Both the position numbers and the translations under genes were made by a program. The notes below the pieces were generated by a model. The model had not been told where the DNA came from, ran no database searches, and worked only from the letters and a program-made list of their open reading frames with translations. DNA of 48,579 bases from Candidatus Cloacimonadota bacterium (GTDB lineage Bacteria; Cloacimonadota; Cloacimonadia; Cloacimonadales; TCS61): the NCBI GenBank assembly GCA_029932755.1, contig JAOZPK010000001.1, forward strand, positions 1 through 48,579, read 5' to 3'. How positions within the stretch are numbered: position 1 is the first letter of the stretch; each line of letters begins with the position of its first letter. Of this stretch, positions 4,323 to 45,342 are shown piece after piece.

Positions 4323-4323
4323 A

Positions 4324-4917
4324 ATGAAATTTAATCTAATTATATGCGGTGTTGGCGGTCAGGGTAGTATCCTCTCATCAAAGATCATTGCTGATGCAGC
4401 GATTAAAAAAGGATATGAAGTAAGAGTTGGAGAGACTTTTGGTGCAGCTATGCGTGGTGGTTCCGTATCATCACATGTAAAGATCGGTGATATTCATTCC
4501 CCTCTGGTTGCTCATAATAGCGCTGATGTGATACTTTCAATGGAACCGCTGGAAAGTTTAAGGGTCAGTGTAGATTATCTTGCTCCTCAAGGGATTGTCA
4601 TATCAGATATCCGACCTTGGTACCCGGTCGATACTAATGCCGGAGGAGCACCTTATCCTTCCAATGATGAGATCATAGCTGAATTAAAAAAATTGGGTAA
4701 AGAAGTCCATTTCCTGGACGCTGCAGCCTTAGCAAAAAAAGCGGGACATCCAAGGACAACAAACATTGTTTTGATCGGTGCCTTAGCTGCCCTGGGTAAA
4801 TTACCAATAGAAAGCAAATATCTAATAGAAGCTATTAAGGAACGAGTTCCCCAAAAAACTATTGATGTCAATATCAAAGCTTTCGAGTTGGGATTCGATT
4901 CTATCAAAAAGAGTTAA
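4324..4917 (+). CDS. iorB: indolepyruvate:ferredoxin oxidoreductase beta subunit
   Basis: N-terminus MKFNLIICGVGGQG is typical of the POR-gamma/IorB fold. The ATG at 4324 lies ~8 nt after AGGAG (4311-4315), so it is preferred over the GTG at 4315 in the ORF track. It directly follows the iorA stop at 4322. Confidence 0.85.
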   Translation: MKFNLIICGVGGQGSILSSKIIADAAIKKGYEVRVGETFGAAMRGGSVSSHVKIGDIHSPLVAHNSADVILSMEPLESLRVSVDYLAPQGIVISDIRPWYPVDTNAGGAPYPSNDEIIAELKKLGKEVHFLDAAALAKKAGHPRTTNIVLIGALAALGKLPIESKYLIEAIKERVPQKTIDVNIKAFELGFDSIKKS

Positions 4918-4929
4918 CAGGCCTTAATT

Positions 4930-5628
4930 ATGAAAATGGAAAAAGTGAGATCAATTCTCTACAAAGCAAAAGAGGAGAAACGCTGGTTACTTGAACCGGA
5001 AGCTATGGAGATCCTCAAAACTTATGAAATTTCTGTGCCGGAGCATCGATTTATCAATGATATTAAGGAAGCTGTGAAAAGTGCTGAATCGATTGGATAT
5101 CCTGTCGTATTAAAAATAGTCTCACCTGCTATTCTGCATAAATCTGATGCGGATTGCGTAAAACTAAACCTGACAAATGGTGAAGAGGTTAGAAATGCCT
5201 ATCAGGAGATATTGACAAATGCAGAAAAATTCGATCCGAAAGCTGAGATCAGGGGAATAATCATCTACCCCATGGTCAAAGCAGGTTTAGAGACCATTAT
5301 TGGCATAACTGAAGATGCTCAATTCGGTCCTGCTGCCATGTTCGGTTTGGGTGGAGTTTTTGTAGAAGTATTGAAAGATGTAGCTTTTCGTATCCTTCCT
5401 TTAACTCTGGATGATGCCTTGGCAATGATAAAAGAAATCAAAGGCTACCAATTACTGTGTGGAATCAGAGGTGAGAAAACCAAAGATATAATCTCACTGG
5501 CTGAAACAATTGTTAAGGTCTCAAAGTTATGCACCGATTTCCCGGAGATCAAAGAGATAGATCTAAATCCGACCTATGTATATGAGCAGTGCGTTACTGT
5601 CGTAGATGCTAGGATCAGGGTCGGTTAA
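4930..5628 (+). CDS. acdB: ADP(NDP)-forming acyl-CoA synthetase, beta subunit (ATP-grasp)
   Basis: 232-aa ATP-grasp-type protein (GYPVVLKIVSPAILHKSDADCVKLN; C-terminal IDLNP). Its size and architecture match beta subunits of two-subunit acetyl/aryl-CoA synthetases. Confidence 0.8.
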   Translation: MKMEKVRSILYKAKEEKRWLLEPEAMEILKTYEISVPEHRFINDIKEAVKSAESIGYPVVLKIVSPAILHKSDADCVKLNLTNGEEVRNAYQEILTNAEKFDPKAEIRGIIIYPMVKAGLETIIGITEDAQFGPAAMFGLGGVFVEVLKDVAFRILPLTLDDALAMIKEIKGYQLLCGIRGEKTKDIISLAETIVKVSKLCTDFPEIKEIDLNPTYVYEQCVTVVDARIRVG

Positions 5629-5668: not shown

Positions 5669-7735
5669 ATGAAATTGAGAATTGGAGTTGATATCGGCGG
5701 TACGTTTACAGACTGTGTAGTTATCAACGAACAGGGTATTATTCACACTTTCAAAGAATTATCTACACCCAGCGATCAATCGATAGGGCTCTATAATGTG
5801 ATCAAAAAGGCAGCCGAATTTTTTGACCTTTCTCTACATGATTTTCTTGGTTGCGCCGAGATATTTGCTCATGGAACCACGGTGGCGACCAATACATTGC
5901 TGACCAGAACGGGAGCAAAAACCGGTTTGATCTTAACCAAGGGCTTCAGAGATACACTGGATATGAGAAGGGCTCATAAAAACAACATCTGGGATCTTCA
6001 CCTGGAATTTGCACCTACACTGGTTGATCGTTACTTGAGACTTGGAGTAACAGAAAGACTGGATTATAAAGGAGATATCGTAACTCCTCTAAATGAAGAA
6101 GATGTAAGGAAAATTTGTAAAAAATTCCAAAAAGAAGAAGTGGAAGCGGTAGCTATTTGTACACTGTTTTCATTTTTAAATAATGTTCATGAAGATCGCA
6201 TCATGGAGATCGTGAAGGAAGAGATGCCGGAGGCATTTGTCTCTAAATCTTCTGAAGTTCTACCTCAGATCCGCGAATATGAGAGAAGTTCTACTATTGT
6301 AGCCAATGTTTATGTCGGTCCAAAATTAACTGTTTATCTTTCTAATTTGGAGCACAAACTAAAGCAGGACGGATTAGAAAAAGCATTTTATGTAACCGCT
6401 TCAAATGGTGGCATGATGACCTGTGATACTGCTATCAAGCATGCTTCCGCTACTTTACTTTCCGGTCCCGCTGCCGGGTCTATTGGAGCTATCTTTTTCT
6501 CCAAACTTTTAGGAGAGGAAGATATTATCCTGATGGATATGGGAGGGACATCGTTTGATGTATCTCTGATCAATAAAGGTGAGATCACCCTGAGCACAGA
6601 AGGAGAAGTTGCTGGTTATCGCATTGCCAAACCAATGATTGATATCCATACAGTTGGTGCCGGAGGGGGTTCAGTTGCCTGGCTGGATGCCGGAGGGATG
6701 TTGCGGGTCGGTCCCGAATCGGCCTATTCCGATCCTGGTCCGATCTGTTACGATATTGGTGGTGAAAAACCTGCGGTGACCGATGCAAATCTTTTGCTGG
6801 GATATCTGAATAAAGATTATTTCTTGGGTGGAGAAATGCAGGTAAATTATCAGAAAGCTTATGACGGTACTAAGACAATAATTGCTGATTCGATGAATAT
6901 GAGTGTGGAAGATGCCTGTCTAGGTATATTCCAGATCGTTAATCAGAACATGGCAGATGCCACCAAAGTTGTCTCAGTTCAGCGTGGTCATGATCCTCGC
7001 GAATTCACCATGGTGAGTGCCGGTGGTGCCTGTTCAATTCACGCCTGTAAAATTGCTGAGGAAATCGGTTCTCAGAAAATTATCGTGCCTAAAGCTGCTT
7101 CGGTATTTTGTGCCTTAGGCATGCTGGAATCTGATATCAAATTAGATAATGTCCGTAGCTTTAACGGGAATATTCCCGGGCTTGATATTGAAATATTCAA
7201 CGCTAAGATCACCAGGACCGAAGAAGAGGCAATGGGTGAACTACTGGAAGAGGGTGTAGAGAAAAAACGTTCATCATTATTACGTTATTTGGATGTCCGT
7301 TATGTAGGGCAACATCATGAAGTGACCGTTGCTATTCCTAACAATTGTGTGATAAAGAAAGAGCATCTTAAGATAATTGCCGAAACATTCCATAGAGCTC
7401 ATGAAAAACTTTATACCTACTCAACACCTGAAACTCCTATAGAGATAATCAACCTCAGAATAACCGCTGTGGGTCATGTTGATAAAACAGGGCTTTATGA
7501 AAAACCGATTGAGAAAATGGACTTAAGCTCAGCTCTTAAGAATAAACGTAAGATCCGTTTTGAAGAATATGAGAAGGCAATAGATACACCCGTTTATGAT
7601 CGTGATAAAATTAAACCGGGTACGAAAATCGAAGGTCCTGCTGTAATTGAAGAACGAATTACCACAATAATAGTACATCCTAAATGGAATGCCTATGTAG
7701 ATGGTTATGAGAATGTGATCATGGAGGTAAAATAA
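5669..7735 (+). CDS. hyuA: hydantoinase/oxoprolinase family protein, A subunit (ATP-dependent cyclic amide hydrolase/carboxylase family)
   Basis: GGAGG RBS. The N-terminal RIGVDIGGTFTDCVV and central MDMGGTSFDVSLI motifs are ASKHA-type ATPase motifs typical of HyuA/N-methylhydantoinase A/acetone carboxylase beta. Confidence 0.88.
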   Translation: MKLRIGVDIGGTFTDCVVINEQGIIHTFKELSTPSDQSIGLYNVIKKAAEFFDLSLHDFLGCAEIFAHGTTVATNTLLTRTGAKTGLILTKGFRDTLDMRRAHKNNIWDLHLEFAPTLVDRYLRLGVTERLDYKGDIVTPLNEEDVRKICKKFQKEEVEAVAICTLFSFLNNVHEDRIMEIVKEEMPEAFVSKSSEVLPQIREYERSSTIVANVYVGPKLTVYLSNLEHKLKQDGLEKAFYVTASNGGMMTCDTAIKHASATLLSGPAAGSIGAIFFSKLLGEEDIILMDMGGTSFDVSLINKGEITLSTEGEVAGYRIAKPMIDIHTVGAGGGSVAWLDAGGMLRVGPESAYSDPGPICYDIGGEKPAVTDANLLLGYLNKDYFLGGEMQVNYQKAYDGTKTIIADSMNMSVEDACLGIFQIVNQNMADATKVVSVQRGHDPREFTMVSAGGACSIHACKIAEEIGSQKIIVPKAASVFCALGMLESDIKLDNVRSFNGNIPGLDIEIFNAKITRTEEEAMGELLEEGVEKKRSSLLRYLDVRYVGQHHEVTVAIPNNCVIKKEHLKIIAETFHRAHEKLYTYSTPETPIEIINLRITAVGHVDKTGLYEKPIEKMDLSSALKNKRKIRFEEYEKAIDTPVYDRDKIKPGTKIEGPAVIEERITTIIVHPKWNAYVDGYENVIMEVK

Positions 7736-9501
7736 TGGCTGTGGCAAGAAAGAGAACTAAAGAATTTGAAGGTGCTAAAGATCCGATCACCTTTGCTGTT
7801 ATTTACAACCGTTTACTCACGATCAATCGTGAAATGGGTATTACCATGATAAATACTTCGATCTCACCCATCTTTGCTGAAGTCCATGATTTTTCATGTG
7901 CGATCTGTGACTGGGAGAACAGGATAGTGGCGCAAGTTGACGGAGTTCCTTCCCATACAGCCTCTGCAATGGAGGCAGTAAAGGCTGTCAGCCGTGTGTT
8001 TGGAGCCGACATTCATCCGGGAGATGTTTTTGTAATGAATGACCCCTATCTGGGTGGTACACATCTTCCTGATGTAACGATCATGAAGCCCATCTTTTAT
8101 GAAGGGGAAATGCAGTTTGTCTCAATTAATCGAGCCCATCATGGTGATGTTGGTGGGATGGAACCTGGTTCATATTGTCCTGAAGCAACCGAACTTTTCC
8201 ACGAAGGAATACGAATTCCTCCTCTCAGACTATTCAGGGATAACAAACCCATTGAAGATGTTGCCGAGATGATCAAGATCAATACCCGGATGCCGGATGA
8301 TCTATGGGTCGATATCAAAGCTCAGGTTGCATCATGCCGGGTGGGAGAAAAACGTATTCTGGAATTATTAGAAAAATATGGTGTAAAAAAAGTGCGGGAA
8401 TCGATCGAGGATATTCATCTCTACGCAGAGTCACGCATGCGCCGGGAAATTGAAAAATTACCCGATGGCGATTATTTCGGTGAGAGTTTTCTGGATAATG
8501 ATGGATTCACGGAAGATCCGATCAAAATAGCTGTAAAAATAACCATTAAGGGTGATAATGCGATAGTTGATCTTGCCGGCTCAGATCCCCAGGTTACGGG
8601 ATTCGTAAACTCACCTATCGCTAATACTGCTACTTGTGTTTATGTAGCATTTCTGACCACAGTAACTACTCCCGATATTCCACATAACGAAGGAGTTTAT
8701 CGACCGATCAAAATAGAGGCGCCGGAAGGAAGTATTGTTAATCCTCTCTTCCCTGCTCCAGTTGCATCCTGTACACTTGATACTGCCTGTGCAATTCTGG
8801 AAGCATGCTGGCAGGCTTTAAGTGAGATCATCCCGGACAGGGTTCCGGCAGGCTGGAATCGATGGAACGGACCGACCATAACAGGCATCGATCCGCGACG
8901 GGAAAATTTCTATGTCATGTTTGGCTTCAACGGATTCGGTGGGGCAGGCGGTATGAATGGCATGGACGGTCGTCATTATATCGGAGACGGAATCGATCTG
9001 GGAGGATTGATCGCTCCCAATATTGAAACTAATGAAGTTGATTATCCCCATATAACCGAATTTAATGAATATACTCAAGATTCTTGTGGAGCAGGTAAAT
9101 TCAGAGGCGGCTGTGGAGCAAGATACAGAGTGAAGCTTTATGATAAATCTCCAACTCTGGTCAATTTTGGTGATGGTAAAATCTTTCCACCATATGGTCT
9201 TTTCGGTGGAAAAACTGGATCCTGTAATTATGCTTTAATCAATGAGGGAAAGGAAAACCAAAGAGAATTGAAAGCTAAAGAATCAGTGAAATTGAAACAG
9301 TATGATACTTTTACATCATATCCATCCGGCGGCGGCGGCTGGGGGAATCCCATGGACCGCGATCCGGAATTGGTCCGTAATGATGCCCGGGATGAACTCA
9401 TCTCTCTGAGTAGTGCCCGTGAAGAATATGGAGTGGTTATAGATGGAGATGATTATGAGATCAATTGGTCTGAAACAAATAAATTAAGAAATAAGTATTA
9501 G
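7735..9501 (+). CDS. hyuB: hydantoinase B/oxoprolinase family protein
   Basis: The ATG overlaps the hyuA stop by 1 nt (TAATG). It starts with DPITFAVIYNRL and contains a NDPYLGGTHLPD segment, both characteristic of Hydantoinase_B. 588 aa. Confidence 0.88.
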   Translation: MAVARKRTKEFEGAKDPITFAVIYNRLLTINREMGITMINTSISPIFAEVHDFSCAICDWENRIVAQVDGVPSHTASAMEAVKAVSRVFGADIHPGDVFVMNDPYLGGTHLPDVTIMKPIFYEGEMQFVSINRAHHGDVGGMEPGSYCPEATELFHEGIRIPPLRLFRDNKPIEDVAEMIKINTRMPDDLWVDIKAQVASCRVGEKRILELLEKYGVKKVRESIEDIHLYAESRMRREIEKLPDGDYFGESFLDNDGFTEDPIKIAVKITIKGDNAIVDLAGSDPQVTGFVNSPIANTATCVYVAFLTTVTTPDIPHNEGVYRPIKIEAPEGSIVNPLFPAPVASCTLDTACAILEACWQALSEIIPDRVPAGWNRWNGPTITGIDPRRENFYVMFGFNGFGGAGGMNGMDGRHYIGDGIDLGGLIAPNIETNEVDYPHITEFNEYTQDSCGAGKFRGGCGARYRVKLYDKSPTLVNFGDGKIFPPYGLFGGKTGSCNYALINEGKENQRELKAKESVKLKQYDTFTSYPSGGGGWGNPMDRDPELVRNDARDELISLSSAREEYGVVIDGDDYEINWSETNKLRNKY

Positions 9502-9509: not shown

Positions 9510-10646
9510 GTGATTGAAATTAAAAAAATTGCTATTCTAGGAGCTGGAAATGGTGGCTTCATGTGTGCAGCAGACTTTGCAGATCAAGGTTATGAAGTAA
9601 GGCTCTTTGATGCACTGGAAGGAAAACTGAATGGTGTTATGGAAAAAGGGATAATTGAAGTACTTGATATCGATTCAAAACCTTCAGGCATGATTGGAGA
9701 AATTGCTCTGGCCAGTGAAGATATTGCTGCTGTTATCAAAGGTGCTGATGTTATAATAAATCCCGTCCCCTATTTTGTTACAGAAACTTATGCAAAATTA
9801 GCAGCGCCTTATTTGGAACAGGGGCAGGTTGTAATTTCTTTAGGTAAAGGTGGAGCCTCTCTAACCTGGGCAAAAGTAATAAAAGAAAGTGGCAATAAAA
9901 ATAAAATATTTCTAGCGGACTGTAATACATTGCCTTATGGTGCTTCTAGATTGAATGATTACCAGGTCAGACTTGAAGCTCGTACCCAAAACTTAATGGT
10001 TGCTTCTTTTCCTGCTAAAGACACTGATTTTGTTTATGAAATATTTTCTACTCTTTGGAATACCGAGAATGGATATGTTATCAGAAAAGGTGTCAATCCT
10101 ATTGATACCCTTTTAGTTGATTATAACGCAATTACCCATACTCCTCCCATGATTTGTAATGCAGCCCGTATTGAGAAGGGTGATAAAGATTTTCATCTTT
10201 TCGGAGTTAAGGAAAATACACCGGCTGTTTGTAGAGTAATGGAAAGAGTTGATAGGGAAAGAATGGCTCTGGGTGAAAAATTGGGGATGAAACAAAATAC
10301 CCTGGAAGAAGAAATTCTATTAGTTAAATGGAACAGAGACGGCGTAGATCATCCACTACCATTCTATGAAGCCATCCATACACCCTTTCTGGAGGTATGT
10401 GAAGGTCCGTTCAATTTGGACGCACGTCATCTGACCGAAGATATCCCCTATGGTCTGGTTACTTTTTCGTCCCTTGGTAAAATGCTGGGAGTTCCAACCC
10501 CAGTTATCGACTCGATAATTACAATATCTGAGGCTTTACTGGATAGAGATTTCTGGAGTGATGGTCGTACTGTTGAAGAGTTGGGATTAAATCCAAAGTG
10601 GAGTGTTGAACAGGTAAGAGATTATTTACAAAATGGAAAAATATAA
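9510..10646 (+). CDS. NAD(P)-dependent opine (octopine/nopaline) dehydrogenase-family oxidoreductase
   Basis: GTG start 6 nt after AGGAGA. N-terminal Rossmann motif IAILGAGNGG. The length and C-terminal helical domain resemble the octopine/nopaline-DH family. Substrate unknown. Confidence 0.7.
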   Translation: MIEIKKIAILGAGNGGFMCAADFADQGYEVRLFDALEGKLNGVMEKGIIEVLDIDSKPSGMIGEIALASEDIAAVIKGADVIINPVPYFVTETYAKLAAPYLEQGQVVISLGKGGASLTWAKVIKESGNKNKIFLADCNTLPYGASRLNDYQVRLEARTQNLMVASFPAKDTDFVYEIFSTLWNTENGYVIRKGVNPIDTLLVDYNAITHTPPMICNAARIEKGDKDFHLFGVKENTPAVCRVMERVDRERMALGEKLGMKQNTLEEEILLVKWNRDGVDHPLPFYEAIHTPFLEVCEGPFNLDARHLTEDIPYGLVTFSSLGKMLGVPTPVIDSIITISEALLDRDFWSDGRTVEELGLNPKWSVEQVRDYLQNGKI

Positions 10647-10658: not shown

Positions 10659-11660
10659 ATGAAAAAATTGAAAGGAAGAGACTTACTTGGTATTACCGAT
10701 CTTACAGCCGAAGAGATCCAGTTTGTAGTGGATGCAGCAAAAAGGTTAAAAGAAGACAGAAGAATGGGAATATCTCATAAAGTTCTCGAGGACAAAGCAT
10801 TAGCTGGTATTTTTGAGACACCTTCTACGAGGACAAGCATCTCTTTTGAATCAGCAATGACCCATCTGGGTGGTCATATGATGTGGCTTGGTCAGGATCG
10901 TCTTTGGACCGGAGATGCAGCAGAAGAGAATTGGTTTGATACAATTAAAACTGTAGATCGTTATGTGGATGGGATTGCTTATCGCTGCGTTAATCGTGAT
11001 AAATTAACTGCAGCAGCTAAATATGCTGATGTTCCCGTGATCAATGCTTCATGTCCTGTTGAACATCCTACTCAGGCTTTAGCTGATGTACAGGCAATGC
11101 AAGAACATCAGGGTGACCTGAAAGGTAAAAAAGTAGCATTCTTATGGGGTTATCGTGCCGCCAATCCTCCTGCAGGACTAACTAACTCTACCATGCTTAT
11201 GGGCGCAAAGATGGGATTTGACGTAACTATTGCCTGTCCAGAAGGATTTGATCCTGACATGAATTACAAAGCAATGGCGGACGAAGCTGCAAAATTAACC
11301 GGAGCAAAGATCAACATAGTAAGATCTTATGAAGAAGCGGTAAAAGATGCTGATTTTATTAATGTCTATTCCTGGGTTTCACCCGAAGTATTTGCTGAAG
11401 GGCTTAAAACTCATTTTAAGGGAAACCCCGAATTTATTAAAATGAAAGCTGGATTGAAAGATAAATGGTGTGTAACGCAGGATATTGTCAATATGGCAAA
11501 ACCGACCTGTAATGTTATGCATTGCCTTCCGGTTTCACGTAATGAAGAGATAACAAGTGAAGCTCTTGATTCTTCCCAATCTATTATATTTGATGAAGCT
11601 GAAAACAGAATGCATACAATTGAAGCATTACTGGCTCTTTTGGTAGGTGGAATTGTTTAA
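10659..11660 (+). CDS. OTC/ATC-superfamily carbamoyltransferase with atypical substrate-binding motifs (specificity unknown)
   Basis: Carries STRTS (canonical STRTR), HPTQALAD, HCLP and a C-terminal FDEAENRMHTIEALL. The OTC DxxxSMG loop is replaced by NVYSWVS, and there is no ATCase-type RxQxER segment. Confidence 0.8.
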   Translation: MKKLKGRDLLGITDLTAEEIQFVVDAAKRLKEDRRMGISHKVLEDKALAGIFETPSTRTSISFESAMTHLGGHMMWLGQDRLWTGDAAEENWFDTIKTVDRYVDGIAYRCVNRDKLTAAAKYADVPVINASCPVEHPTQALADVQAMQEHQGDLKGKKVAFLWGYRAANPPAGLTNSTMLMGAKMGFDVTIACPEGFDPDMNYKAMADEAAKLTGAKINIVRSYEEAVKDADFINVYSWVSPEVFAEGLKTHFKGNPEFIKMKAGLKDKWCVTQDIVNMAKPTCNVMHCLPVSRNEEITSEALDSSQSIIFDEAENRMHTIEALLALLVGGIV

Positions 11661-11768: not shown

Positions 11769-13400
11769 ATGAACAAAAGAGGAAAATTGTTTGTAATCGT
11801 TATTGCGATTATCGTTGTTAGTTTTTTAATACCAGAAGCAAATCTTGCTTATGCCAAGGTCGTAAAACGGGATAAATCCGTTGTCTTTAGTGCTGTTTGG
11901 CCGCCTCAACTTGACCCGGCTGTTGGGCAAGGTTTTGGAAGTGCCATATGCTACGCAAATATCTACGACAGTATTATTTTTCCGCAGAGCGATGGAACTA
12001 CAACTAATCATCTGGCTGAGAATATCATAGTATCGGCAGATGGTCTTGTTTATGATATTACACTCAAAAAAGGTGTAAAATTTCACAATGGTGATGAACT
12101 ACAAGCCGAAGATGTAGTTTTTAGTATGAACCGTATAAAAACGATCGGTGAGGGATTTGGATACCTCTTTATTCCTACTGTAAAGGCAATCAGTTCAGAT
12201 GGCCCATATCAGGTAAAAATTGAATTGAATAAAGCCTTCGGTCCCTTTTTGGCTACCCTGGTAAATCTATATATTCTTAATGAAGATCAGGTAATGGCCC
12301 ATATTAATCCGGATGGTCTCTATGGAGAATTTGGTGATTATGGAAAAGAGTGGCTCATTACCAATGATGCCGGTTCCGGACCTTATATGGTTACTGAAAT
12401 GAGAATACAAGAACATCTGATAGCAGAAAGATTTGTCGATTACTGGGCAGGATTCGATGCCAATAATCCTGATAAATTTATATTTATCGGAACCGCAGAG
12501 CCTGTTACAATTCGAGTTATGATGGGAAAAAGAGAATTGGAAATTTCCGATCAGTGGCAGTCTGAAGAGAGCTTCGGAGCTTTAGATAAAATAAAAGGTG
12601 TAGATTTAGTTAAATTCCTTTCCGGAAGCACACTGGGAATACAATTGAACACAAAAAGAGCTCCTACAGATGATGTTCATGTAAGAAGAGCGTTAGCCTA
12701 TATAATGGATTACGAAGGAATAATCAAGGGTGTATATCCTGGAGCTTCACGACTTGTAAGCCCGGTATCCTTATTAATGCCAGGATCAGATCCTACTATA
12801 GTGGGATACGATACAAACCTAGCTAAAGCAGAAGCTGAGTTAAAACTTTCAAAATATTATGGCAAATTTGATGAATATCCGGTAGATATATGCTGGGCTG
12901 CAGAGTGGGTAACAGCTGATAAAATGGCTCTGCTTTTCCAGGCAAGCGCAGCCAAGATCGGCGTCAAAGTTAACATTGCCAAGCAACCATGGGCAAAAAT
13001 GATCTCCGATGTTTCAAATATGGAAACGACTGCCCATGCAAATATTCTTACAATTGGGCCTCATTATGGGGAAGCCGGTACATTTATTTCACGTTATCTA
13101 TCGAGCAGCTGCGGAACCTGGGAACAAACTGAATGGCTTCAGGATCCGGAAATTGACCAGATGATCTACGATGCTCTGGGTACCGTTGATGACAAAGAAA
13201 GATATAAAAAATACTCCATAATTGAGCATAAAATACTGGATATCTGCCCAACTATATTCTTGGTGGATGTATTGGAAAAACACGCTTATCAAGCAGAATA
13301 TCTTGAATGGGGTGTAGCGAAAAGCAAAGCTATTCCTGTCCAGGGATATAATATTTACATGCGTGACATGAAAATATTCCCTGAAAGAGCTAAGAAATAG
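11769..13400 (+). CDS. ABC transporter substrate-binding protein, family 5 (peptide/opine/nickel type)
   Basis: GGAGGAGG RBS. N-terminal signal/anchor ends AYA-KV. At 543 aa it is a DppA/OppA-like cluster-C SBP. Confidence 0.85.
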   Translation: MNKRGKLFVIVIAIIVVSFLIPEANLAYAKVVKRDKSVVFSAVWPPQLDPAVGQGFGSAICYANIYDSIIFPQSDGTTTNHLAENIIVSADGLVYDITLKKGVKFHNGDELQAEDVVFSMNRIKTIGEGFGYLFIPTVKAISSDGPYQVKIELNKAFGPFLATLVNLYILNEDQVMAHINPDGLYGEFGDYGKEWLITNDAGSGPYMVTEMRIQEHLIAERFVDYWAGFDANNPDKFIFIGTAEPVTIRVMMGKRELEISDQWQSEESFGALDKIKGVDLVKFLSGSTLGIQLNTKRAPTDDVHVRRALAYIMDYEGIIKGVYPGASRLVSPVSLLMPGSDPTIVGYDTNLAKAEAELKLSKYYGKFDEYPVDICWAAEWVTADKMALLFQASAAKIGVKVNIAKQPWAKMISDVSNMETTAHANILTIGPHYGEAGTFISRYLSSSCGTWEQTEWLQDPEIDQMIYDALGTVDDKERYKKYSIIEHKILDICPTIFLVDVLEKHAYQAEYLEWGVAKSKAIPVQGYNIYMRDMKIFPERAKK

Positions 13401-13433
13401 TTTGCTGATCTATATTAGGGAAAGAGACCATAG

Positions 13434-14450
13434 ATGAGAACGATAAAGTTTTTACTAAAAAGATTAGCATTGTCATTGATCGTGCTATTTGGATTATCTG
13501 TAATGATCTTTATTCTGGGGCGTGTTGTTCCAGGTGATCCCGCTAGAATGTCTCTTGGGGCTAATGCGCCCCAAGAGACAGTTGATAGAATGCGGCAGCA
13601 AATGCATCTGGATGAACCACTTGTCGTGCAATACGGATACTGGTTTAGTGGAATTATTCAGGGAGATTTCGGTAAATCACTCTATACAAAACGACCTGTT
13701 ATCGTTGATCTGACCGAGTTTTTCCCGGCTACCTTAGAACTTGTGATCTTTTCGGGATTATTGATGGGTTTGGGTGGTTTGATCCTCGGGATAATCTCCA
13801 CAAAATTCAACAATACCTGGGTCGATAACATAATTCGGATAGTTTCCTACTTAGGTGTGGTTACACCATCCTTTGTCTTTGCGATTATTTTCTTGCTGAT
13901 ATTTGGTTATCTCTGGCCGATATTCCCTACTATGGGACGTTTAAGTCAATACCTAAGTTTTCCTCCAAATCATACAGGGCTATTACTTATTGACAGCTTA
14001 ATAGCCGGCGAGTGGGAAACATTCTGGAATGGATTTTCACATATCATACTACCGGCAATTGCCCTGGCTCTAGGTGGTATGTCTCAGGAGGCAAGAATAA
14101 CCCGATCCTCGATGTTAGATAATATGTCAAAAGACTATATCTTAAGTCACAGGGCTTATGGAATTCCTGAAAAAAAAATTTTCTATAAATACCTGCTTAA
14201 ACCTTCTCTAATTCCAACTGTTACAGTATTTGGACTTGATTTTGCAGTCCTCTTTGGAAATGCTTTTCTGGTTGAAATGGTGTTTAACTGGCCCGGATTA
14301 TCTCGTTATGGAATAAATGTGATGCTGCAAAAAGATCTTAATGCTATCTCTGCAGTGATCATTCTTCTCGGAGCCATCTTTGTATTAATGAATATAGTTA
14401 CCGATCTAGTGGTCTCTTTTCTTGATCCAAGAATTCAACTGGCTGATTAG
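13434..14450 (+). CDS. ABC transporter permease (DppB/OppB-like)
   Basis: Multi-TM protein with the BPD-transporter EAA-like loop (QEARITRSSMLDNMSKDYILSHRAYGIP). Confidence 0.88.
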   Translation: MRTIKFLLKRLALSLIVLFGLSVMIFILGRVVPGDPARMSLGANAPQETVDRMRQQMHLDEPLVVQYGYWFSGIIQGDFGKSLYTKRPVIVDLTEFFPATLELVIFSGLLMGLGGLILGIISTKFNNTWVDNIIRIVSYLGVVTPSFVFAIIFLLIFGYLWPIFPTMGRLSQYLSFPPNHTGLLLIDSLIAGEWETFWNGFSHIILPAIALALGGMSQEARITRSSMLDNMSKDYILSHRAYGIPEKKIFYKYLLKPSLIPTVTVFGLDFAVLFGNAFLVEMVFNWPGLSRYGINVMLQKDLNAISAVIILLGAIFVLMNIVTDLVVSFLDPRIQLAD

Positions 14451-14458
14451 GATATTAT

Positions 14459-15334
14459 ATGAAAAGTAATAAATTTACATTTTGGAAAGAAAATGTAGGA
14501 CGTTCATGGTATAAATTTTCTCGGAATAAACTTTCCGTTATTGGTTTAACCCTTTTTATTTTGCTGATCCTGGCAGCGATCCTGGCTCCTTTAATCACAC
14601 CTTACCCCAAGCATGCGGGAAATTTCGTTGATCTTATTACCGGTTCTCAAGCTCCAGATGCAAGACATCTGATGGGAACAGATATTTATGGCAGAGATAT
14701 GTTTTCTCGAATTATCTTTGCGCTTCGACCTGCACTTTTAATGGGAATAATGGTTTTGGCGATAGTTGTCCCGATCGGCACGATCCTGGGCTTGATAGCA
14801 GGATATTATAAAGGTAAATTTGGTGATCATATTATCATGAGACTGACCGATGTCTTTCTGGGATTGCCACCTTTGATCCTTGCCTTAGCTGTATCTTCTA
14901 TTTTAAAACCAACGCTGACCAATTCAATGATCGCTGTTTCGGTGGCATTTTGGCCCTGGTACTCGAGATTAGTTTATAATATGGTTATCTCCATCAAAAA
15001 TGAGCATTATGTAATTTCTTCCGAACTTCTGGGAGAGTCTAGAGTTCATATACTGTTCAGGGAGATCTTACCCAATTGTCTATCCCCAATTTTTACTAAG
15101 ATGACTCTTGATTTTGGCTGGGTAATTATTATGACTGCTTCCTTGAGTTTTGTAGGACTTGGTGAGCAGCCGCCTGATCCTTCTTTAGGAACGATGGTGG
15201 CAGAAGGAGCTCGTTTACTGCCCGATAAGTGGTGGGTTGCAATTTATCCTGCCTTTACAATTGTACTACTGGTTTTATCTCTTAATCTGATCGGAGATGG
15301 TGTACGAGATATGTTTACAGCAACGGAGGAGTAG
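14459..15334 (+). CDS. ABC transporter permease (DppC/OppC-like)
   Basis: Multi-TM protein with N-terminal OppC-type extension and a conserved ...SSELLGESRVHILFREILPN loop. Confidence 0.88.
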   Translation: MKSNKFTFWKENVGRSWYKFSRNKLSVIGLTLFILLILAAILAPLITPYPKHAGNFVDLITGSQAPDARHLMGTDIYGRDMFSRIIFALRPALLMGIMVLAIVVPIGTILGLIAGYYKGKFGDHIIMRLTDVFLGLPPLILALAVSSILKPTLTNSMIAVSVAFWPWYSRLVYNMVISIKNEHYVISSELLGESRVHILFREILPNCLSPIFTKMTLDFGWVIIMTASLSFVGLGEQPPDPSLGTMVAEGARLLPDKWWVAIYPAFTIVLLVLSLNLIGDGVRDMFTATEE

Positions 15335-16324
15335 ATGGGAGATAATTATCTATTAAAAGTAGAGGACCTTACTGTCGATTATAAAGTATATGGTGGCTAT
15401 TTGAAAGTTCTTGATGGAGTAAATTTTTATGTTAAACACAATGAAAGAGTCGGGATAATAGGAGAAACTGGATGCGGTAAGACAACTACCATGAAATCAA
15501 TTTTACGCCTGCAAGCTAATAATGCTATTTTCAGGAAAGGTAAAATCACGGTTGGAGATCAGGATATTCTGAAGATGAATGATAAGAATTTCCACGCTTT
15601 CCGCAAAAAAGGTCTGGCAATGATTTTTCAGGAACCTATGATCGCTCTCAATCCTGTTTTTACAATTGGGCAGCAGATAGAAGATGTTATCTATCACGCT
15701 AGTGATACAAAATTAAGTAAAGCGGAATTAAAGCAGAAAGCCCGTGAGGTTATTGCCAGTGTATCACTTCCGGATGCAGACAGAATCCTCAGCAATTATC
15801 CTTTCCAGCTAAGTGGAGGAATGCGACAGCGTATCTGCATCGCTCTGGCAATTTCCATGGCTCAAAAACTGCTGATAGCAGACGAGCCTACAACCGCTCT
15901 TGATGTTACTATTCAAGCTCAAATATTAGAGTTGATTGATCAGATCTCCAAGCAGAAGAAGATGTCTCTGATCCTGATCACTCACTCCCTGGGACTTACA
16001 AGAAATACTACAGACAGAATGTATGTAATGTATGCAGGATCAATGATCGAATCCTGTTCGACCAAACAACTTTATGAAAACCCCCTACATCCCTACACAA
16101 TAGGATTACTTAAATCCATACCTCGATTAACCGGAGGAGAATTCTCCAATGGTATTCCGGGACGGCTGCCCGATTATATGAATCCTCAGCCCGGCTGTCG
16201 TTTCCAGAATCGTTGCACTAAGGTTATGGATATATGCCGTAGACAGAAACCAAGCGAAATTGAAGTAGAGCCAGAACACTACGTTGCCTGCTTTCTCTTT
16301 GATCAGAAGGGAGATAAACAATGA
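15335..16324 (+). CDS. ABC transporter ATP-binding protein (DppD/OppD-like) with C-terminal Cys-rich oligopeptide-type extension
   Basis: Walker A GETGCGKT, signature LSGGMRQR, Walker B LIADEPT, H-loop ITHS. C-terminal CRFQNRC...C motif. The start abuts the previous stop. Confidence 0.9.
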   Translation: MGDNYLLKVEDLTVDYKVYGGYLKVLDGVNFYVKHNERVGIIGETGCGKTTTMKSILRLQANNAIFRKGKITVGDQDILKMNDKNFHAFRKKGLAMIFQEPMIALNPVFTIGQQIEDVIYHASDTKLSKAELKQKAREVIASVSLPDADRILSNYPFQLSGGMRQRICIALAISMAQKLLIADEPTTALDVTIQAQILELIDQISKQKKMSLILITHSLGLTRNTTDRMYVMYAGSMIESCSTKQLYENPLHPYTIGLLKSIPRLTGGEFSNGIPGRLPDYMNPQPGCRFQNRCTKVMDICRRQKPSEIEVEPEHYVACFLFDQKGDKQ

Positions 16325-17277
16325 AAGATTTGGATTTTATTAAAATAGAGAATGTTAAAAAATATTTTCCTATTGGAAATGACCTATTTGTAAAAGCATT
16401 AGATGGGATAGATCTGGAAATTAATAAAGGAGAGACCGTTGGACTCGTAGGTGAATCGGGATCCGGCAAGAGTACTCTGGCCTATACTCTGATGGGTATG
16501 TATGAACCTACCGATGGAAAAATAAGCTTCAAAAATGAGAATATCGGATTGAAAGCTCAAAAAAGAGATTTGAGTATAAAAAAAGAGATGCAGATTGTTT
16601 TTCAGGATCCAAGTGGTTCTTTAAATCCAAGAAGAGTTATTTCTAATATTTTATCCCGTCCGCTGCTGCTTCATAAAATCGTTCCAAAAAATGAATTAAA
16701 GGCAAAACTGATCGAGCTCTTAGATTCAGTTGAACTTCCACAGGAGTATTTGTACAAATATACACCTTCGATAGGTGGAGGTGAAAAACAACTGATAGCA
16801 ATAGCTCGAGCCATTGCTGCTCATCCAGAATTTCTAATCCTGGATGAGCCCACCAGTTCGCTTGATGTTTCGGTACAAGGTAAGATCATCAATACCCTGA
16901 TGAAACTAAAAAAAGAATTGAATCTGACCTATCTATTCATAACTCACGATATGAGCTTAATGCGCAATGTTGCCGACCGTATTGCCATCATGTATCTGGG
17001 TAAGATCATGGAGCTGGCAACTACTCGTGAATTCTTTGAAAACCCTCTGCATCCTTATACTAAGATGCTATTATCTTCTATCCCCGTGGTAAGTGCTGAG
17101 GAAGAAAAATTATTACCGAAAGAGATCAAATCCAGTGGTGAGATCCCCAGCCCGGTCAATTTACCAGAGGGTTGTCGATTTATTACCCGTTGCCCTTATG
17201 CTAAAGAGATCTGTGAAACAAAAGAACCGGAATTAACTGAGAGAGAACCCGGTCATTGGTCCAGATGCTATTATTGA
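16321..17277 (+). CDS. ABC transporter ATP-binding protein (DppF/OppF-like) with degenerate signature motif
   Basis: ATGA overlap with the previous gene. Walker A GESGSGKS, Walker B LILDEPT, H-loop ITHD. The signature reads IGGGEKQ instead of LSGGQ. C-terminal CRFITRCP...C motif. Confidence 0.9.
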   Translation: MKDLDFIKIENVKKYFPIGNDLFVKALDGIDLEINKGETVGLVGESGSGKSTLAYTLMGMYEPTDGKISFKNENIGLKAQKRDLSIKKEMQIVFQDPSGSLNPRRVISNILSRPLLLHKIVPKNELKAKLIELLDSVELPQEYLYKYTPSIGGGEKQLIAIARAIAAHPEFLILDEPTSSLDVSVQGKIINTLMKLKKELNLTYLFITHDMSLMRNVADRIAIMYLGKIMELATTREFFENPLHPYTKMLLSSIPVVSAEEEKLLPKEIKSSGEIPSPVNLPEGCRFITRCPYAKEICETKEPELTEREPGHWSRCYY

Positions 17278-17324: not shown

Positions 17325-18176
17325 ATGCAATATTTCCTATCCGCAACTTTGAATGAGTTGCTGCTAGTTTTGGATTCTGAGAGTAATAGCGAAATAATAG
17401 CCGGTGGAACAGACCTGGTCATCATTATGGAGGAGTCGGGTAAAAGACCGGAAAAATTAATTGATATAACAAATATTAAAGAACTTATTGGTATCAAAGA
17501 AGAAAAATTTGGAATCTCTATAGGAGCAGTTACGACTATTGCAAAGCTTGCTGCCAATAATAGTTTACCCTGTTGTTTAAGAAGTGGCGCTGCTTCAATT
17601 GGTTCACCCCAGATCAGAAATGTCGGCACTATTGGGGGAAATATCTGCAACGCCTCACCCAGTGGTGATACCCTGACTCCGCTTATATGTTTAAATGCAG
17701 ATCTCCTGTTGCAATCTACCAAAGGTGAACGGTTAATTTCTACCGAACAATTTTTCCTGGGTCCCAAAAAAACAGTATTGAAAAAAAATGAAGTTTTGTC
17801 GGAGATCCGAATCGGTAATAGATATTTGTCTGGCTCATCCGGTTTCAGGATGATCGGTCAGCGTAATGGGCAAGTTATCTCTCAAGTAAACTTGGCTGTA
17901 TGGCTAAAAAGATCAGCAGAGTCCGGTCTAATTGAAGAAATCCGTATTGCAGCCGGTTCTGTTGCTCCTACTCCGATCAGAATTATTGAAGCTGAAGAGA
18001 TGCTTTGCGGTACAAATCCCGGGGCCAAATTGATCTTCCAAGCTGCCCGCTCAGTACAAGCATGTATCACCCCTATTAATGATGTACGCTCTACTGCTGA
18101 ATATAGGCAGGATGTAATTATTGGTCTGTTTAGTGATATTATGTCACAAATATTAAAGGAGCCCCAATCATGCTGA
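17325..18176 (+). CDS. xanthine dehydrogenase/CO dehydrogenase-family FAD-binding subunit
   Basis: AAGGAG RBS. The segments IIAGGTDL and GTIGGNICNASPSGD are typical of the medium (FAD) subunit. 283 aa. Confidence 0.88.
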   Translation: MQYFLSATLNELLLVLDSESNSEIIAGGTDLVIIMEESGKRPEKLIDITNIKELIGIKEEKFGISIGAVTTIAKLAANNSLPCCLRSGAASIGSPQIRNVGTIGGNICNASPSGDTLTPLICLNADLLLQSTKGERLISTEQFFLGPKKTVLKKNEVLSEIRIGNRYLSGSSGFRMIGQRNGQVISQVNLAVWLKRSAESGLIEEIRIAAGSVAPTPIRIIEAEEMLCGTNPGAKLIFQAARSVQACITPINDVRSTAEYRQDVIIGLFSDIMSQILKEPQSC

Positions 18177-18646
18177 TCGAATTTATATGTAACGGAAAAG
18201 AGATCAGTGTAGATGTTCTTGCTGAGATGAGGGCTTTAGATTTGATCAGAAATGAACTACTGCTTACCGGCACAAAATGCGGCTGCTCCAAAGGTGAATG
18301 TGGTTCCTGTACTATTTTAGTGGATGGTATTCCCGAATGCTCCTGCTTACTACTGGCTCCCAAGTTACAGGGCAAAGTGATTACAACAATTGAAGGTCTG
18401 GAAGGAGCAGATGGAGAGCTACACCCTATCCAACAGGCATTTTTGGAGGAGGGCGCTGTGCAATGCGGATTCTGCACTCCGGGTATGATCCTCAGTACAA
18501 AAGCGTTATTAAAAAAGAATCCTGCTCCCACAGTGACAGAAATTGAAGAGGGACTTAGTGGTAATATCTGTCGTTGTACTGGTTATACAAAAATTATCAA
18601 AGCAGTTCAATTCGCAGCTCTTAAATTGAAAGGATCTGAAATATGA
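18170..18646 (+). CDS. xanthine dehydrogenase-family [2Fe-2S] small subunit
   Basis: 7-nt overlap with the FAD subunit. Cys clusters are CGCSKGECGSCT and CGFCTPG...CRCTGY. 158 aa. Confidence 0.9.
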   Translation: MLIEFICNGKEISVDVLAEMRALDLIRNELLLTGTKCGCSKGECGSCTILVDGIPECSCLLLAPKLQGKVITTIEGLEGADGELHPIQQAFLEEGAVQCGFCTPGMILSTKALLKKNPAPTVTEIEEGLSGNICRCTGYTKIIKAVQFAALKLKGSEI

Positions 18647-23558: not shown

Positions 23559-23577
23559 TTATTTGGAGGTTTTATTA

Positions 23578-44756: not shown

Positions 44757-44769
44757 AAGGAGACTTTTT

Positions 44770-45342
44770 ATGAACCGATGTCCTTGGGGAACAGCCGATG
44801 AATTATATATCCGTTATCACGATGATGAATGGGGAGTACCCGTTTACGATGATAAAAAGCAGTTTGAATTTCTTGTATTGGAATCTACCCAAGCCGGGCT
44901 CAGTTGGCACACGATCCTCAAGAAACGAGAGAACTATCGTGCTGCCTATGATGAATTTAATGTACAAAAAGTAGCAAAATATGATGGGCAGAAAATTGAA
45001 GAATTGATGCAGAATGCCGGTATCATCCGCAATCGTCGAAAGATTGAAGCTTCGGTTAATAATGCTAAGTTATTTCTGGATATCCAAAAAGAATTCGGTA
45101 GTTTTTGTAACTATTTATGGGGATTTGTAAATGGAAAACCACTTGTAAACAATTGGACTGAAATATCGCAAATCCCAGCTAAAACCGAATTATCTGATCG
45201 CCTCAGTAAAGACATGAAAGAACGCGGCTTTAAATTCTTAGGATCAATTATTCTCTATTCACATATGCAGGCAACCGGACTGGTAAATGATCATCTGAAA
45301 AGCTGTTTCCGCTGGAAAGAGTGCCAGGAAATTTCGATATAA
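44770..45342 (+). CDS. tag: DNA-3-methyladenine glycosylase I
   Basis: The ATG at 44770 lies 8 nt after AAAGGAG and is preferred over the ORF-track start at 44734, which overlaps the previous gene. Carries RCPWG...YHDDEWGVP...LESTQAGLSW Tag motifs. Confidence 0.88.
   Translation: MNRCPWGTADELYIRYHDDEWGVPVYDDKKQFEFLVLESTQAGLSWHTILKKRENYRAAYDEFNVQKVAKYDGQKIEELMQNAGIIRNRRKIEASVNNAKLFLDIQKEFGSFCNYLWGFVNGKPLVNNWTEISQIPAKTELSDRLSKDMKERGFKFLGSIILYSHMQATGLVNDHLKSCFRWKECQEISI

Follow-up and report, generated by a model that had tools for sequence, protein, structure and literature searches.

A divergent transcarbamylase in a HyuAB-linked gene block of a Candidatus Cloacimonadota bacterium and its probable role in ureido-group catabolism

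We analyzed a stretch of 48,579 nucleotides from a Candidatus Cloacimonadota bacterium (GenBank assembly GCA_029932755.1, contig JAOZPK010000001.1), hereafter called the window, in which a gene on the forward strand at positions 10659 to 11660 encodes a divergent transcarbamylase (TCase). The gene is a 333-amino-acid open reading frame (ORF) with an ATG start and a ribosome-binding site, AAAGGAG, 8 nt 5' of it, and its product matches the Pfam domains OTCace_N (E 2.4e-39) and OTCace (E 5.2e-37). A promoter and terminator scan around the gene returned no signal above shuffled background. TCase follows genes for a HyuA-HyuB pair and an opine-dehydrogenase-like (ODH-like) oxidoreductase, and we describe here the motifs of the protein, its relatives, this gene block, and the reaction that the four genes may serve.

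Motifs, ligand positions, and relatives of the transcarbamylase

The strings quoted for TCase in the initial annotation were all located in its sequence: FETPSTRTSISFE at residue 52, HPTQ at 136, NVYSWVSPEVF at 235, KDKWCV at 267, VMHCLP at 286, and FDEAENRMHTIEALL at 311. Neither of the two motifs reported there as missing, DxxxSMG of ornithine transcarbamylase (OTC) and RxQxER of aspartate transcarbamylase (ATCase), occurs in TCase, and the C terminus is OTC-like as described, by virtue of the FDEAENRMH segment; the AENR helix motif is common to both. The same annotation had called both the carbamoyl-phosphate (CP) motif and the second-substrate motifs noncanonical, and of this only the second half stands. 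The family motif is Fx(E/K/N/D/A/Q)xSxRT, in which S-T-R-T are given as the CP ligands (Shi et al. 2015, PMC4581275). In TCase, the corresponding segment FETPSTRTS (residues 52 to 60; positions 10812 to 10838, forward strand) retains S56-T57-R58-T59 intact, and the departures nearby are a Thr instead of Lys at the third position (T54 for OTC K53) and a Ser at the fifth residue of STRTS (S60 for OTC R59, a residue outside the ligand list).

To place the ligands listed by Shi et al. 2015 (PMC4581275) on TCase, we aligned it with E. coli ArgI, PyrB, and YgeW. In the alignment to OTC, all CP ligands are kept (S56, T57, R58, T59, R109, H136, Q139, C289, L290, and R317), and the CP site is, as judged from this alignment, canonical rather than deviant. 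The ornithine ligands, on the other hand, are replaced: K53 by T54, N167 by G173, D231 by Y237, and M236 by P242; OTC S235 aligns with S241 of TCase, although DxxxSMG as a motif is missing. Replacement likewise affects the proposed YgeW substrate ligands, with K270 corresponding to Y237, Q160 to S131, D124 to V111, S200 to A168, and K203 to P170, and the ATCase ligands find no counterpart, R167 being G173 and R229 and Q231 being unmatched. Several of the replaced positions hold aromatic residues that are invariant in the TCase clade (W83, Y237, and W239), and Trp83 matches W77 of AOTCase and W75 of SOTCase in the 80s loop.

These positions lie in loops that differ from those of OTC, all encoded on the forward strand. 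The 80s loop RLWTGDAAEENW (residues 81 to 92; 10899 to 10934) is two residues longer than that of Pyrococcus furiosus OTC, and its W83 occupies the position of OTC Q82* and YgeW Q98*, the residue donated by the neighboring subunit. In the AlphaFold2 model of TCase (pLDDT 91.7, pTM 0.91), this loop is the region of lowest confidence (pLDDT 62). The segment SCPVEHPTQ (residues 131 to 139; 11049 to 11075) carries the carbamoyl-binding HPxQ motif, and C132, P133, and E135 within it are clade invariant. A proline-rich loop, WGYRAANPPAGLTNS (residues 163 to 177; 11145 to 11189), has a 6-residue insertion relative to the GDxxNN segment of OTC and is aligned by MAFFT with the proline-rich loop TWAYSPSYGKPLSVPQG of YgeW. 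The lengthened 240s loop NVYSWVSPEVFAEGLKTHFKGNPEFIKMKAGLKDKWC (residues 235 to 271; 11361 to 11471) replaces the DxxxSMG loop of OTC and folds in the model into three short helices (242 to 246, 248 to 251, and 257 to 264), while HCLP (residues 288 to 291; 11520 to 11531) reads HCMP in most clade members. MAFFT also pairs YSWVSP with PKSWAP and KDKWCVT with HKDWHCT of YgeW, a resemblance already pointed out in the initial annotation, and the estimate that TCase is about 60 residues shorter proved accurate (333 versus 396 amino acids in E. coli YgeW, 63 fewer). A Foldseek search with the TCase model gave OTC, PTC, and AOTC structures as near-equal matches (TM 0.85 to 0.88).

With its two Pfam domains, STRT, R109, HPTQ, and HCLP, TCase is by sequence a member of the transcarbamylase superfamily, and it scores under the cutoff of every curated NCBIfam model. 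The best hidden Markov model (HMM) match was OTC TIGR00658, with 272.5 bits against a cutoff of 280.85, followed by OTC NF001986 (264.3 against 306), PTC TIGR04384 (227.6 against 500), AOTC (178.9 against 288), ATC TIGR00670 (141.4 against 236.95), YgeW NF005538 (109.8 against 453), and YgeW TIGR03316 (100.2 against 500). The first of these scores, just under its cutoff, together with P. furiosus OTC as the best PDB match and the OTC-like FDEAENRMH, is what can be said for a genuine if divergent OTC, whether anabolic or belonging to the arginine deiminase pathway, which is how annotation pipelines label it. Such an enzyme would, however, have to do without DxxxSMG and with K53, N167, and D231 replaced, invariantly in the clade. 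Moreover, neither the window nor any of more than 60 related loci contains arginine biosynthesis genes, arcA, or arcD, and when a 50%-clustered library was searched exhaustively the scores dropped from 476 bits for the clade representative to 339 bits for the sister protein P0362 and then to 253 bits or less. We consider a true OTC very unlikely. The initial annotation, which held that the enzyme acts on neither ornithine nor aspartate, is in line with these results: the ligands are replaced, the scores are below the cutoffs, and the proteins form a separate clade with 100% bootstrap support.

Assignment to the other known classes was also rejected. ATCase was set aside because TCase is without RxQxER, has G173 in place of R167, leaves R229 unmatched, and scores below the ATC cutoff, and PTC because of the 227.6-bit score, a third motif residue that is Thr and not Gln, and the absence of the C-terminal extension of about 20 residues; the C terminus of TCase ends level with OTC. 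DPTCase and DBTCase are marked by HDLP and (T/S)RWQ(T/S)(T/M)G, which TCase lacks, carrying HCLP or HCMP and YSWVSPEV instead. Ureidoglycine carbamoyltransferase was rejected since H(T/S)LP is missing and TCase lies on the OTC/proline-loop side of the tree rather than on the ATCase branch, and AOTC and SOTC failed on both motif and score. For the YgeW type (YTCase), TCase has the proline-rich loop and the extended 240s loop with extra helices, but the scores are below the cutoffs, the 120s segment has 15 rather than 20 residues, and K270 and Q160 are Y237 and S131. A proline-rich loop is a signature of the knotted transcarbamylases, which, as far as they are known, all possess an extended 120s loop in addition (Shi et al. 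2015, PMC4581275); the knotted signatures are thus split in TCase, with the proline-rich loop present and the extended 120s loop missing. Pseudogene status was likewise rejected, given the conservation across the clade.

The homologue set consisted of the best 120 database relatives, from a clade of at least 120 cluster representatives. They share 61 to 93% identity with TCase, are nearly all 333 amino acids long, and come from Spirochaetota, Thermoanaerobacterales, Bacillota, Bipolaricaulota, and other groups; where they are named, it is as "ornithine carbamoyltransferase" or "hypothetical protein." STRTS was found in 119 of these 120 closest homologues (STRTA in the remaining one), and YSWVSP together with NPPAG in 117. 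Canonical OTC loci, in contrast, read STRTR 77 times out of 79 and carried DxxxSMG in 74 of 82 motif matches. The motif deviations are neither chance nor sequencing error. HCMP outnumbers HCLP among the homologues (74 versus 44 of 120) and in metagenomic loci (40 versus 13), and this majority is itself a departure from the superfamily motif HxLP. The clade pattern comprises a WGYRxANPPAGLTNS loop and a YSWVSPEVFA...KDKW 240s loop. In an alignment of 57 clade members, the invariant or nearly invariant residues were S56-T57-R58-T59-S60; R81, W83, G85, A87, and E90; C132-P133-x-E135-H136-P137-x-Q139; W163-G164...P170-P171-x-G173-L174-x-N176-S177; and Y237-S238-W239-V240-x-P242...F245-A246, K263, W270, and H288-C289-x-P291. 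With 61 to 93% identity across several phyla, the clade appears to be under purifying selection.

A neighbor-joining tree of 136 sequences recovered the clade with 100% bootstrap support and the clade plus its sister with 91%; the sister, P0362, is 48% identical to TCase and likewise has STRTS and HCMP. Proteins with the W-x-(Y/W)...P loop, E. coli YgeW included, grouped together with just 59% support. The tree was built from sequences other than AOTC, SOTC, and PTC, and those three families were compared by HMM scores and motifs. When the PDB was queried with a representative of the proline-loop proteins, P. furiosus OTC was still the top match. In a scan of species-representative genomes, in which the generic FDEAENRM pattern dominated, one clade member (L005) was among the matches listed. 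In the 50%-clustered library, the entries P0362 to P0472 include many uncharacterized OTC-like proteins with a W-x-(Y/W)...P loop and odd catalytic motifs (NCMP, NPMP, DCLP, HALP, and HVMP), and the "knotted" side of the family appears far more diverse than its three characterized members.

The conserved gene block and its surroundings

The order HyuA-HyuB-ODH-TCase was found in 11 of 11 contexts obtained from protein look-ups. Scanning metagenomes for a DNA pattern specific to the clade then added 53 further short loci (L095 to L147). Of the 40 metagenomic loci that extend far enough, 39 have the ODH-like gene directly upstream of TCase, HyuA and HyuB precede the ODH-like gene in every locus reaching that far, and the ODH and TCase genes overlap by 1 to 8 nt in L001 and L002. 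Twelve contigs are common to the match lists of the TCase, ODH-like, and SsnA-like amidohydrolase families (165355, 56037, 80192, 32017, 27011, 46537, 35908, 20275, 15821, 13805, 23870, and 8005 bp). The initial annotation had named hyuAB and an amidohydrolase as neighbors of TCase; both are present, but the ODH-like gene, its tightest partner, had been overlooked. In a sister-clade locus, the same five genes are retained (48 to 59% identity) and arranged as TCase, amidohydrolase, HyuA, HyuB, and ODH-like; this locus also has a set of genes for a tungsten-type aldehyde oxidoreductase (AFOR) and an MtmB-like gene.

In 44 loci with sufficient sequence, the genes directly downstream of TCase were those for a corrinoid protein with MtmB-like, MttB-like, and OCD proteins (11 loci), a ferredoxin and AFOR (10), Grd selenoprotein reductase (8, plus 1 behind a transporter), a xanthine-dehydrogenase-family enzyme (XDH; 7), an ADP-forming acyl-CoA synthetase (ACS) with IOR (2), or an ABC binding protein (1). 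The resulting consensus is [ACS/IOR]-[GntR]-HyuA-HyuB-ODH-TCase-[corrinoid methyltransferases or Grd]-[Fd-AFOR]-XDH-SsnA-like-UacX. XDH, SsnA-like, and UacX genes lie downstream in the window, in L089, L090, L099, L105, L109, L117, and L140, and on the 165355-bp contig. Bmp nucleoside transporters occur in L086 and on the 165355-bp contig, a carbamate kinase gene lies beside the block in L002/L003 (TIGR00746, 371 bits against a cutoff of 358), and in L089 and L090 the block has AA_kinase genes at its flanks.

The corrinoid/MtmB-like/MttB-like/OCD (SbnB-like) module and Grd occupy the same slot after TCase (e.g., L105:1868-14482, L096, and L108), which suggests that the two alternating modules act on the same product of the block. 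We know of no purine pathway that explains the methyltransferase set. The MtmB-family proteins (L001:11692-13056 and, on the reverse strand, L092:8218-9603) are encoded by uninterrupted ORFs of 454 to 461 amino acids, none of which therefore contains an amber codon in frame for pyrrolysine; their identity between the loci of the two clades is 46%, and no NCBIfam model matched them at an E value below 1e-20. The substrate-specific Grd B subunits of the spirochaete loci (L002:11022-13689) are divergent, scoring 379 against a cutoff of 800 with GrdF, 270 against 780 with GrdG, and 342 against 602 with the glycine GrdB model, and this Grd may be a reductase for a new substrate. AFOR (L002:18286-20793; L092:17385-20993) occurs together with a Fer4_11 ferredoxin and a small protein of the ThiS/MoaD type, joined in L092 by a Pyr_redox_2 flavoprotein, a layout that we take to be that of the AorABC tungsten aldehyde oxidoreductase of Aromatoleum. 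The recurrent enzyme implies an aldehyde intermediate in the pathway.

In the window itself, the block sits in a long, codirectional array on the forward strand that runs from a GntR regulator to an NCS2 permease. The GntR/FCD regulator (256 to 1002) heads the array, a position that it also holds in L002, L085, L103, L107, L108, and L135. ACS alpha (1020 to 2345) and ACS beta (4930 to 5628) bracket IorA (2376 to 4322; IOR_alpha 626 bits against a cutoff of 650.9) and IorB (4315 to 4917), forming a compact cassette for conversion of a 2-oxoacid via acyl-CoA to acid and ATP. The HyuAB-ODH-TCase block is accompanied by the same ACS/IOR cassette in L004, L005 (twice), L085, L090, L118, L133, and L134. 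HyuA (5669 to 7735; Pfam Hydantoinase_A) and HyuB (7735 to 9501; Pfam Hydantoinase_B) form an ATP-dependent hydantoinase/lactamase pair, for which the nearest NCBIfam models were caprolactamase CapA and CapB, below their cutoffs. The ODH-like NAD(P) oxidoreductase (9510 to 10646; Pfam Octopine_DH) matches the Arthrobacter N-(1-D-carboxyethyl)-L-norvaline dehydrogenase 1bg6 over its full length (E 3.8e-41), and a His and an Arg..Glu-Asp segment, which we take to be catalytic in 1bg6, are conserved in the ODH-like alignment.

Downstream of TCase, an Opp/Dpp-type ABC importer (11769 to 17277) comprising SBP_bac_5, two permeases, and two ATPases, and present also in L085 and L121, is followed by XDH, with its FAD (17325 to 18176), 2Fe-2S (18170 to 18646), and molybdenum cofactor (18643 to 20919) subunits and an identity of 30% to E. 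coli XdhA and 28% to XdhD. Next lies the SsnA-like amidohydrolase of the TRZ/ATZ-SsnA group (20929 to 22311; SsnA model 254.6 bits against a cutoff of 444, 24% identity to E. coli SsnA). Two tandem PydA/UacX-like reductases (22377 to 24768; DHO_dh plus two [4Fe-4S]) come after it, and a reductase of this type adjoins the amidohydrolase in L005, L089, L090, L099, and L105 and on the 165355-bp contig as well. The tandem ORFs overlap by 80 nt (23479 to 23558), the true start of the second being probably further downstream, and most related loci have a single copy. The array ends with a PbuX-like NCS2 nucleobase permease (24915 to 26297). Aminotran_3, AFOR, Grd, OCD, and MtmB/MttB genes were not found within the window.

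Beyond the permease gene (26300 to 48579), the G+C content falls from about 0.40 to 0.30 to 0.36, and this part encodes Fic and AbiEii toxin-type proteins, DUF3078, OmpA (39060 to 40457), and proteins with C-terminal sorting domains of the type IX secretion system (T9SS; 36037 to 37236 and 40715 to 43495). T9SS, OmpA, DUF3078, and the like are hallmarks of a Bacteroidota/FCB-type Gram-negative host, and the closest relatives of the operon genes are labeled Clostridia, Thermoanaerobacterales, and Spirochaetota; the operon may have been acquired horizontally. At 45370 to 48429 lies a gene for a 1,019-amino-acid protein composed mostly of ankyrin repeats, unusual for a free-living bacterium, beside genes for a methyladenine glycosylase (44734 to 45342) and an AAA_14/DUF4143 ATPase (43626 to 44756).

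Proposed reaction, pathway, and candidate substrates

In the reductive urate pathway, urate is converted via 2,8-dioxopurine and its dihydro form to ureidomethyl-hydantoin, and HyuA opens the hydantoin to 2,3-diureidopropionate (PMC12507026; bioRxiv 10.1101/2025.04.24.650524; PMC12990295). YgeW then phosphorolyzes one ureido group of 2,3-diureidopropionate to carbamoyl phosphate, from which YqeA makes ATP (bioRxiv 10.1101/2025.04.24.650524; PMC12507026), and YgeY and YgeX complete the route to pyruvate (PMC12507026; bioRxiv 10.1101/2025.04.24.650524; PMC12990295). An XDH-type enzyme, a PydA-type reductase, and SsnA are the families of the first three steps, and distant relatives of all three lie next to each other in the window. 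None of HyuA, YgeW, and YgeY is encoded in the clusters described here, and by analogy, HyuAB, TCase, and the ODH-like protein might stand in for HyuA, YgeW, and YgeY. We conclude that TCase probably performs catabolic phosphorolysis of a ureido intermediate in the breakdown of an N-heterocycle. The suggestion in the initial annotation of a catabolic enzyme that cleaves a ring-opening product fits this conclusion, given the invariant HyuA-HyuB-ODH-TCase block and the nearby carbamate kinase (L002/L003) and AA_kinase (L089 and L090) genes.

What the data establish is that TCase belongs to the family, has an intact CP site but none of the substrate ligands of the ornithine, aspartate, and YgeW enzymes, is conserved in its clade, and is linked to its gene neighbors; the direction of the reaction, its substrate, and its coupling to ATP synthesis are inferred. 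Supply of the hydantoin would fall to a molybdenum hydroxylase, a ring reductase of the PydA/UacX type, and the SsnA-like amidohydrolase, and HyuAB would open the hydantoin-type ring at the cost of one ATP. TCase would convert the ureido compound exposed by ring opening, with phosphate, to an amine and carbamoyl phosphate, carbamate kinase would turn the latter into ATP, CO2, and NH3, and in this way the ATP spent by HyuAB would be regained. The ODH-like enzyme would act one step before or after TCase.

Several observations weigh against this assignment. Searches by tblastn detected no carbamate kinase, YgeX, YgeY, or D-hydantoinase within the 48.6-kb window, and none of the four was found within the 53 short metagenomic loci. 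The sister-clade locus has no XDH or UacX within 10 kb. Identity between the amidohydrolase and E. coli SsnA is just 24%, and XdhA is a closer match to the XDH than XdhD is; urate is accordingly not a necessary choice of ring substrate, which may be another oxopurine or a related heterocycle. ODH-like, AFOR, Grd, and corrinoid methyltransferase genes, which recur in the clusters, are without a role in the canonical urate pathway. Finally, phosphorolysis is thermodynamically unfavorable on its own, as noted for YgeW (PMC12507026).

Full-text literature searches found no description of a HyuAB-ODH-TCase module. The SsnA-based survey in PMC12507026 used IPR017700, a model that the amidohydrolase of the window misses, and it probably missed these clusters. 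The clade, its loop architecture, its obligatory ODH-like partner, and the surrounding pathway would be new, while the chemistry itself is familiar. A broader proposal, to which we give slightly under an even chance, is that TCase represents an undescribed transcarbamylase type with an OTC-like core, a proline-rich loop and 240s loop like those of YgeW but a 120s loop that is not extended, an AOTC-like Trp, STRTS, mostly HCMP, and a novel ureido substrate. Together with HyuAB, the ODH-like protein, and the SsnA-like amidohydrolase, it would form the conserved core of an undescribed, redox-balanced anaerobic purine-type pathway that ends at the level of glycine, sarcosine, or glyoxylate and feeds Grd or corrinoid methyltransferases according to phylum.

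Three mutually exclusive refinements of the catabolic role differ in the substrate. The one that we favor, albeit tentatively, makes TCase a replacement for YgeW, acting on 2,3-diureidopropionate, on its mono-ureido derivatives, or on both. XDH and UacX would reduce the purine, the SsnA-like enzyme would yield ureidomethyl-hydantoin, HyuAB would yield 2,3-diureidopropionate, and TCase would convert one ureido group, or both, to carbamoyl phosphate. Oxidation of the diaminopropionate-level product, possibly through 3-aminopyruvate to the glycine level, would be the work of the ODH-like enzyme and then of AFOR or IOR/ACS, and it would give back the four reducing equivalents that XDH and UacX consume, which would make the scheme redox balanced. 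3-Aminopyruvate is a 2-oxoacid with an aldehyde tautomer. The oxidation route would explain the alternation of AFOR with IOR/ACS, the Grd complexes, and the amino-acid permeases; Grd, these permeases, and Aminotran_3 fit glycine or another amino acid as the end product. This is the most parsimonious choice given the feeder enzymes; the XDH, SsnA-like, and UacX-like genes are colocated, an NCS2 permease gene lies in the window, and two proteins elsewhere agree with it: a PALP gene in L090 follows carbamate kinase, where YgeX might sit, and the OCD protein of L001 scores best against the SbnB (diaminopropionate) family. The logic of the individual steps is backed by the published enzymes (PMC12507026; bioRxiv 10.1101/2025.04.24.650524; PMC12990295). 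However, the feeder enzymes are distant relatives of the characterized ones, the YgeW ligands K270, Q160, and D124 are lost, the role given to the ODH-like enzyme is pure inference, and the corrinoid methyltransferase module is left unaccounted for.

The slot after TCase and the residues at the pocket positions bear on a second candidate, an N-carbamoyl C2 acid (N-carbamoylglycine or ureidoglycolate), which we consider unlikely. Here, HyuAB would open hydantoin, or a hydantoin losing its side chain, to N-carbamoylglycine, which the ODH-like enzyme may oxidize to the level of ureidoglycolate; TCase would free carbamoyl phosphate together with glycine or with an unstable hydroxyglycine, whose decay to glyoxylate and NH3 would pull the reaction. 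Gene order would then equal reaction order, with the ODH/TCase overlap in L001 and L002. Alternation of AFOR and IOR/ACS is expected if the product is glyoxylate, at once an aldehyde and a 2-oxoacid, Grd complexes come right after TCase in 8 to 9 loci, and the bulkier pocket residues (W83 for Q82 and Y237 for D231) would suggest a small substrate. Nonetheless, no route is known by which a reduced oxopurine would become unsubstituted hydantoin, N-acyl amino acids are not among the known substrates of opine dehydrogenases, and the pocket-size argument comes from alignment alone.

N-Carbamoylsarcosine, or another N-methyl-N-carbamoyl amino acid, is a third and doubtful candidate, to which the corrinoid modules point. 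Creatinine or a methylated heterocycle would give N-methylhydantoin, which HyuAB would open, TCase would release sarcosine and carbamoyl phosphate, and glyoxylate and methylamine would arise from cleavage of the sarcosine by the ODH-like enzyme. Hydrolyzing N-methylhydantoin in an ATP-dependent manner is the classical HyuAB reaction (PMC4417704; PMC12623156). Genes for a corrinoid protein and for MtmB-like and MttB-like methyltransferases directly follow TCase in 11 loci, with an MtmB-like gene in the sister-clade locus as well, and sarcosine, a secondary N-(carboxymethyl)amine, is of the opine dehydrogenase substrate type. For the Grd B subunits, the highest-scoring models are those of the sarcosine-specific GrdF and GrdG, but the scores are far below the cutoffs (379 versus 800 and 270 versus 780). 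XDH, UacX, and the nucleobase and nucleoside transporters would be left unexplained, and no known transcarbamylase uses a secondary amine. Creatinine deiminases are CodA-like, whereas the amidohydrolase belongs to the SsnA/TRZ-ATZ group, family searches having given no model of the cytosine/creatinine deaminase type. The known N-methylhydantoin fermenter, moreover, uses a hydrolase and not a transcarbamylase (PMC4417704).

That some other ureido compound is the substrate we regard as improbable; orotate, pyrimidine, hydantoin-5-propionate, allantoin, and pterin substrates were considered, and none fits the gene set better than the three candidates above. A role outside catabolism, as a biosynthetic carbamoyltransferase producing a ureido compound (for instance, a natural-product precursor of the DPTCase/DBTCase kind) or as an inactive paralogue, is highly improbable. 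Transcarbamylase equilibria favor synthesis, and albizziin, the product of DPTCase, is chemically near the candidate substrates, but the DPTCase and DBTCase signatures are missing and no nonribosomal peptide synthetase or other biosynthetic genes lie nearby. The neighbors are instead catabolic and energy conserving (HyuAB, IOR/ACS, carbamate kinase, and Grd), and the catalytic residues are all conserved.

Under the favored catabolic assignment, the block suggests an energy-neutral opening of hydantoins, in which the one ATP spent is regained via carbamoyl phosphate, and it points to a fourth, undescribed anaerobic route of purine-type breakdown, one year after the reductive urate pathway was solved. 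Such a route would be relevant to nitrogen cycling in sediments and digesters and to alternative enzyme sets for uricolytic probiotics. The clade is mislabeled as OTC, and with the ornithine site lost, arginine-pathway reconstructions of the metagenome-assembled genomes that carry it are wrong. Within the transcarbamylase fold, it combines the four specificity loops in a new way and is a natural test of which loops form the knot and which set specificity.

Comparison with known transcarbamylases and ureido-degrading pathways

Overall, TCase is closest to P. furiosus OTC (PDB 1pvv/1a1s), with 39 to 40% identity (E 4.6e-65) and a TM score of 0.86. It shares with OTCs such as this one and E. coli ArgI the identical CP ligands, including R317 (OTC R319), as well as HCLP and a short 120s loop. 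It differs in that its SMG loop is replaced and 12 residues longer, a 6-residue proline-rich insertion is present, W83 stands for Q82* and S60 for R59, the ornithine ligands are lost, and the gene is never found beside arg or arc genes. PTC of the agmatine deiminase pathway has similar fold scores and a catabolic, ATP-yielding role on the OTC branch, as proposed here for TCase, but TCase lacks the 230s-loop motif of PTC.

At the level of the pathway, the creatinine/N-methylhydantoin and allantoin-oxalurate routes offer a parallel, in that opening of a hydantoin is followed, optionally after a dehydrogenase step, by loss of a ureido group. In the allantoin-oxalurate route (ureidoglycolate dehydrogenase, the oxamate transcarbamylase AllFGH, and carbamate kinase), the ureido group leaves as carbamoyl phosphate for ATP. 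The enzymes are different, however: the creatinine route, in which HyuAB serves as N-methylhydantoinase, removes the ureido group with a hydrolase, N-carbamoylsarcosine amidohydrolase, and the allantoin route uses the unrelated three-subunit AllFGH, neither of which has the OTC fold, and neither route includes a member of the opine dehydrogenase family.

Like the knotted AOTCase and SOTCase, TCase has a proline-rich loop and an active-site Trp in the 80s loop (W83 versus W77/W75), and its model matches 3kzk with a Foldseek TM score of 0.86. In contrast, it has STRT where they have SMRT or SLRT, it is without their extended 120s loop, the Lys that opens their 240s loop is a Tyr, and it lies outside arginine biosynthesis clusters. 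YgeW, at 30% identity, has an extended 120s loop and extra N- and C-terminal helices that TCase lacks, and its partners are HyuA, YgeY, and YgeX rather than HyuAB and an ODH-like protein. The two nevertheless have in common a W-x-Y...P loop, S-W-x-P and K-D-W in a helix-containing 240s loop, and a Cys (C132) before HPxQ; extra helices in the 240s loop of YgeW have been described (Shi et al. 2015, PMC4581275). By analogy with YgeW, the likeness is likely to extend to function, in that a ureido acid would be phosphorolyzed once the hydantoin has been opened, in a step coupled to carbamate kinase.

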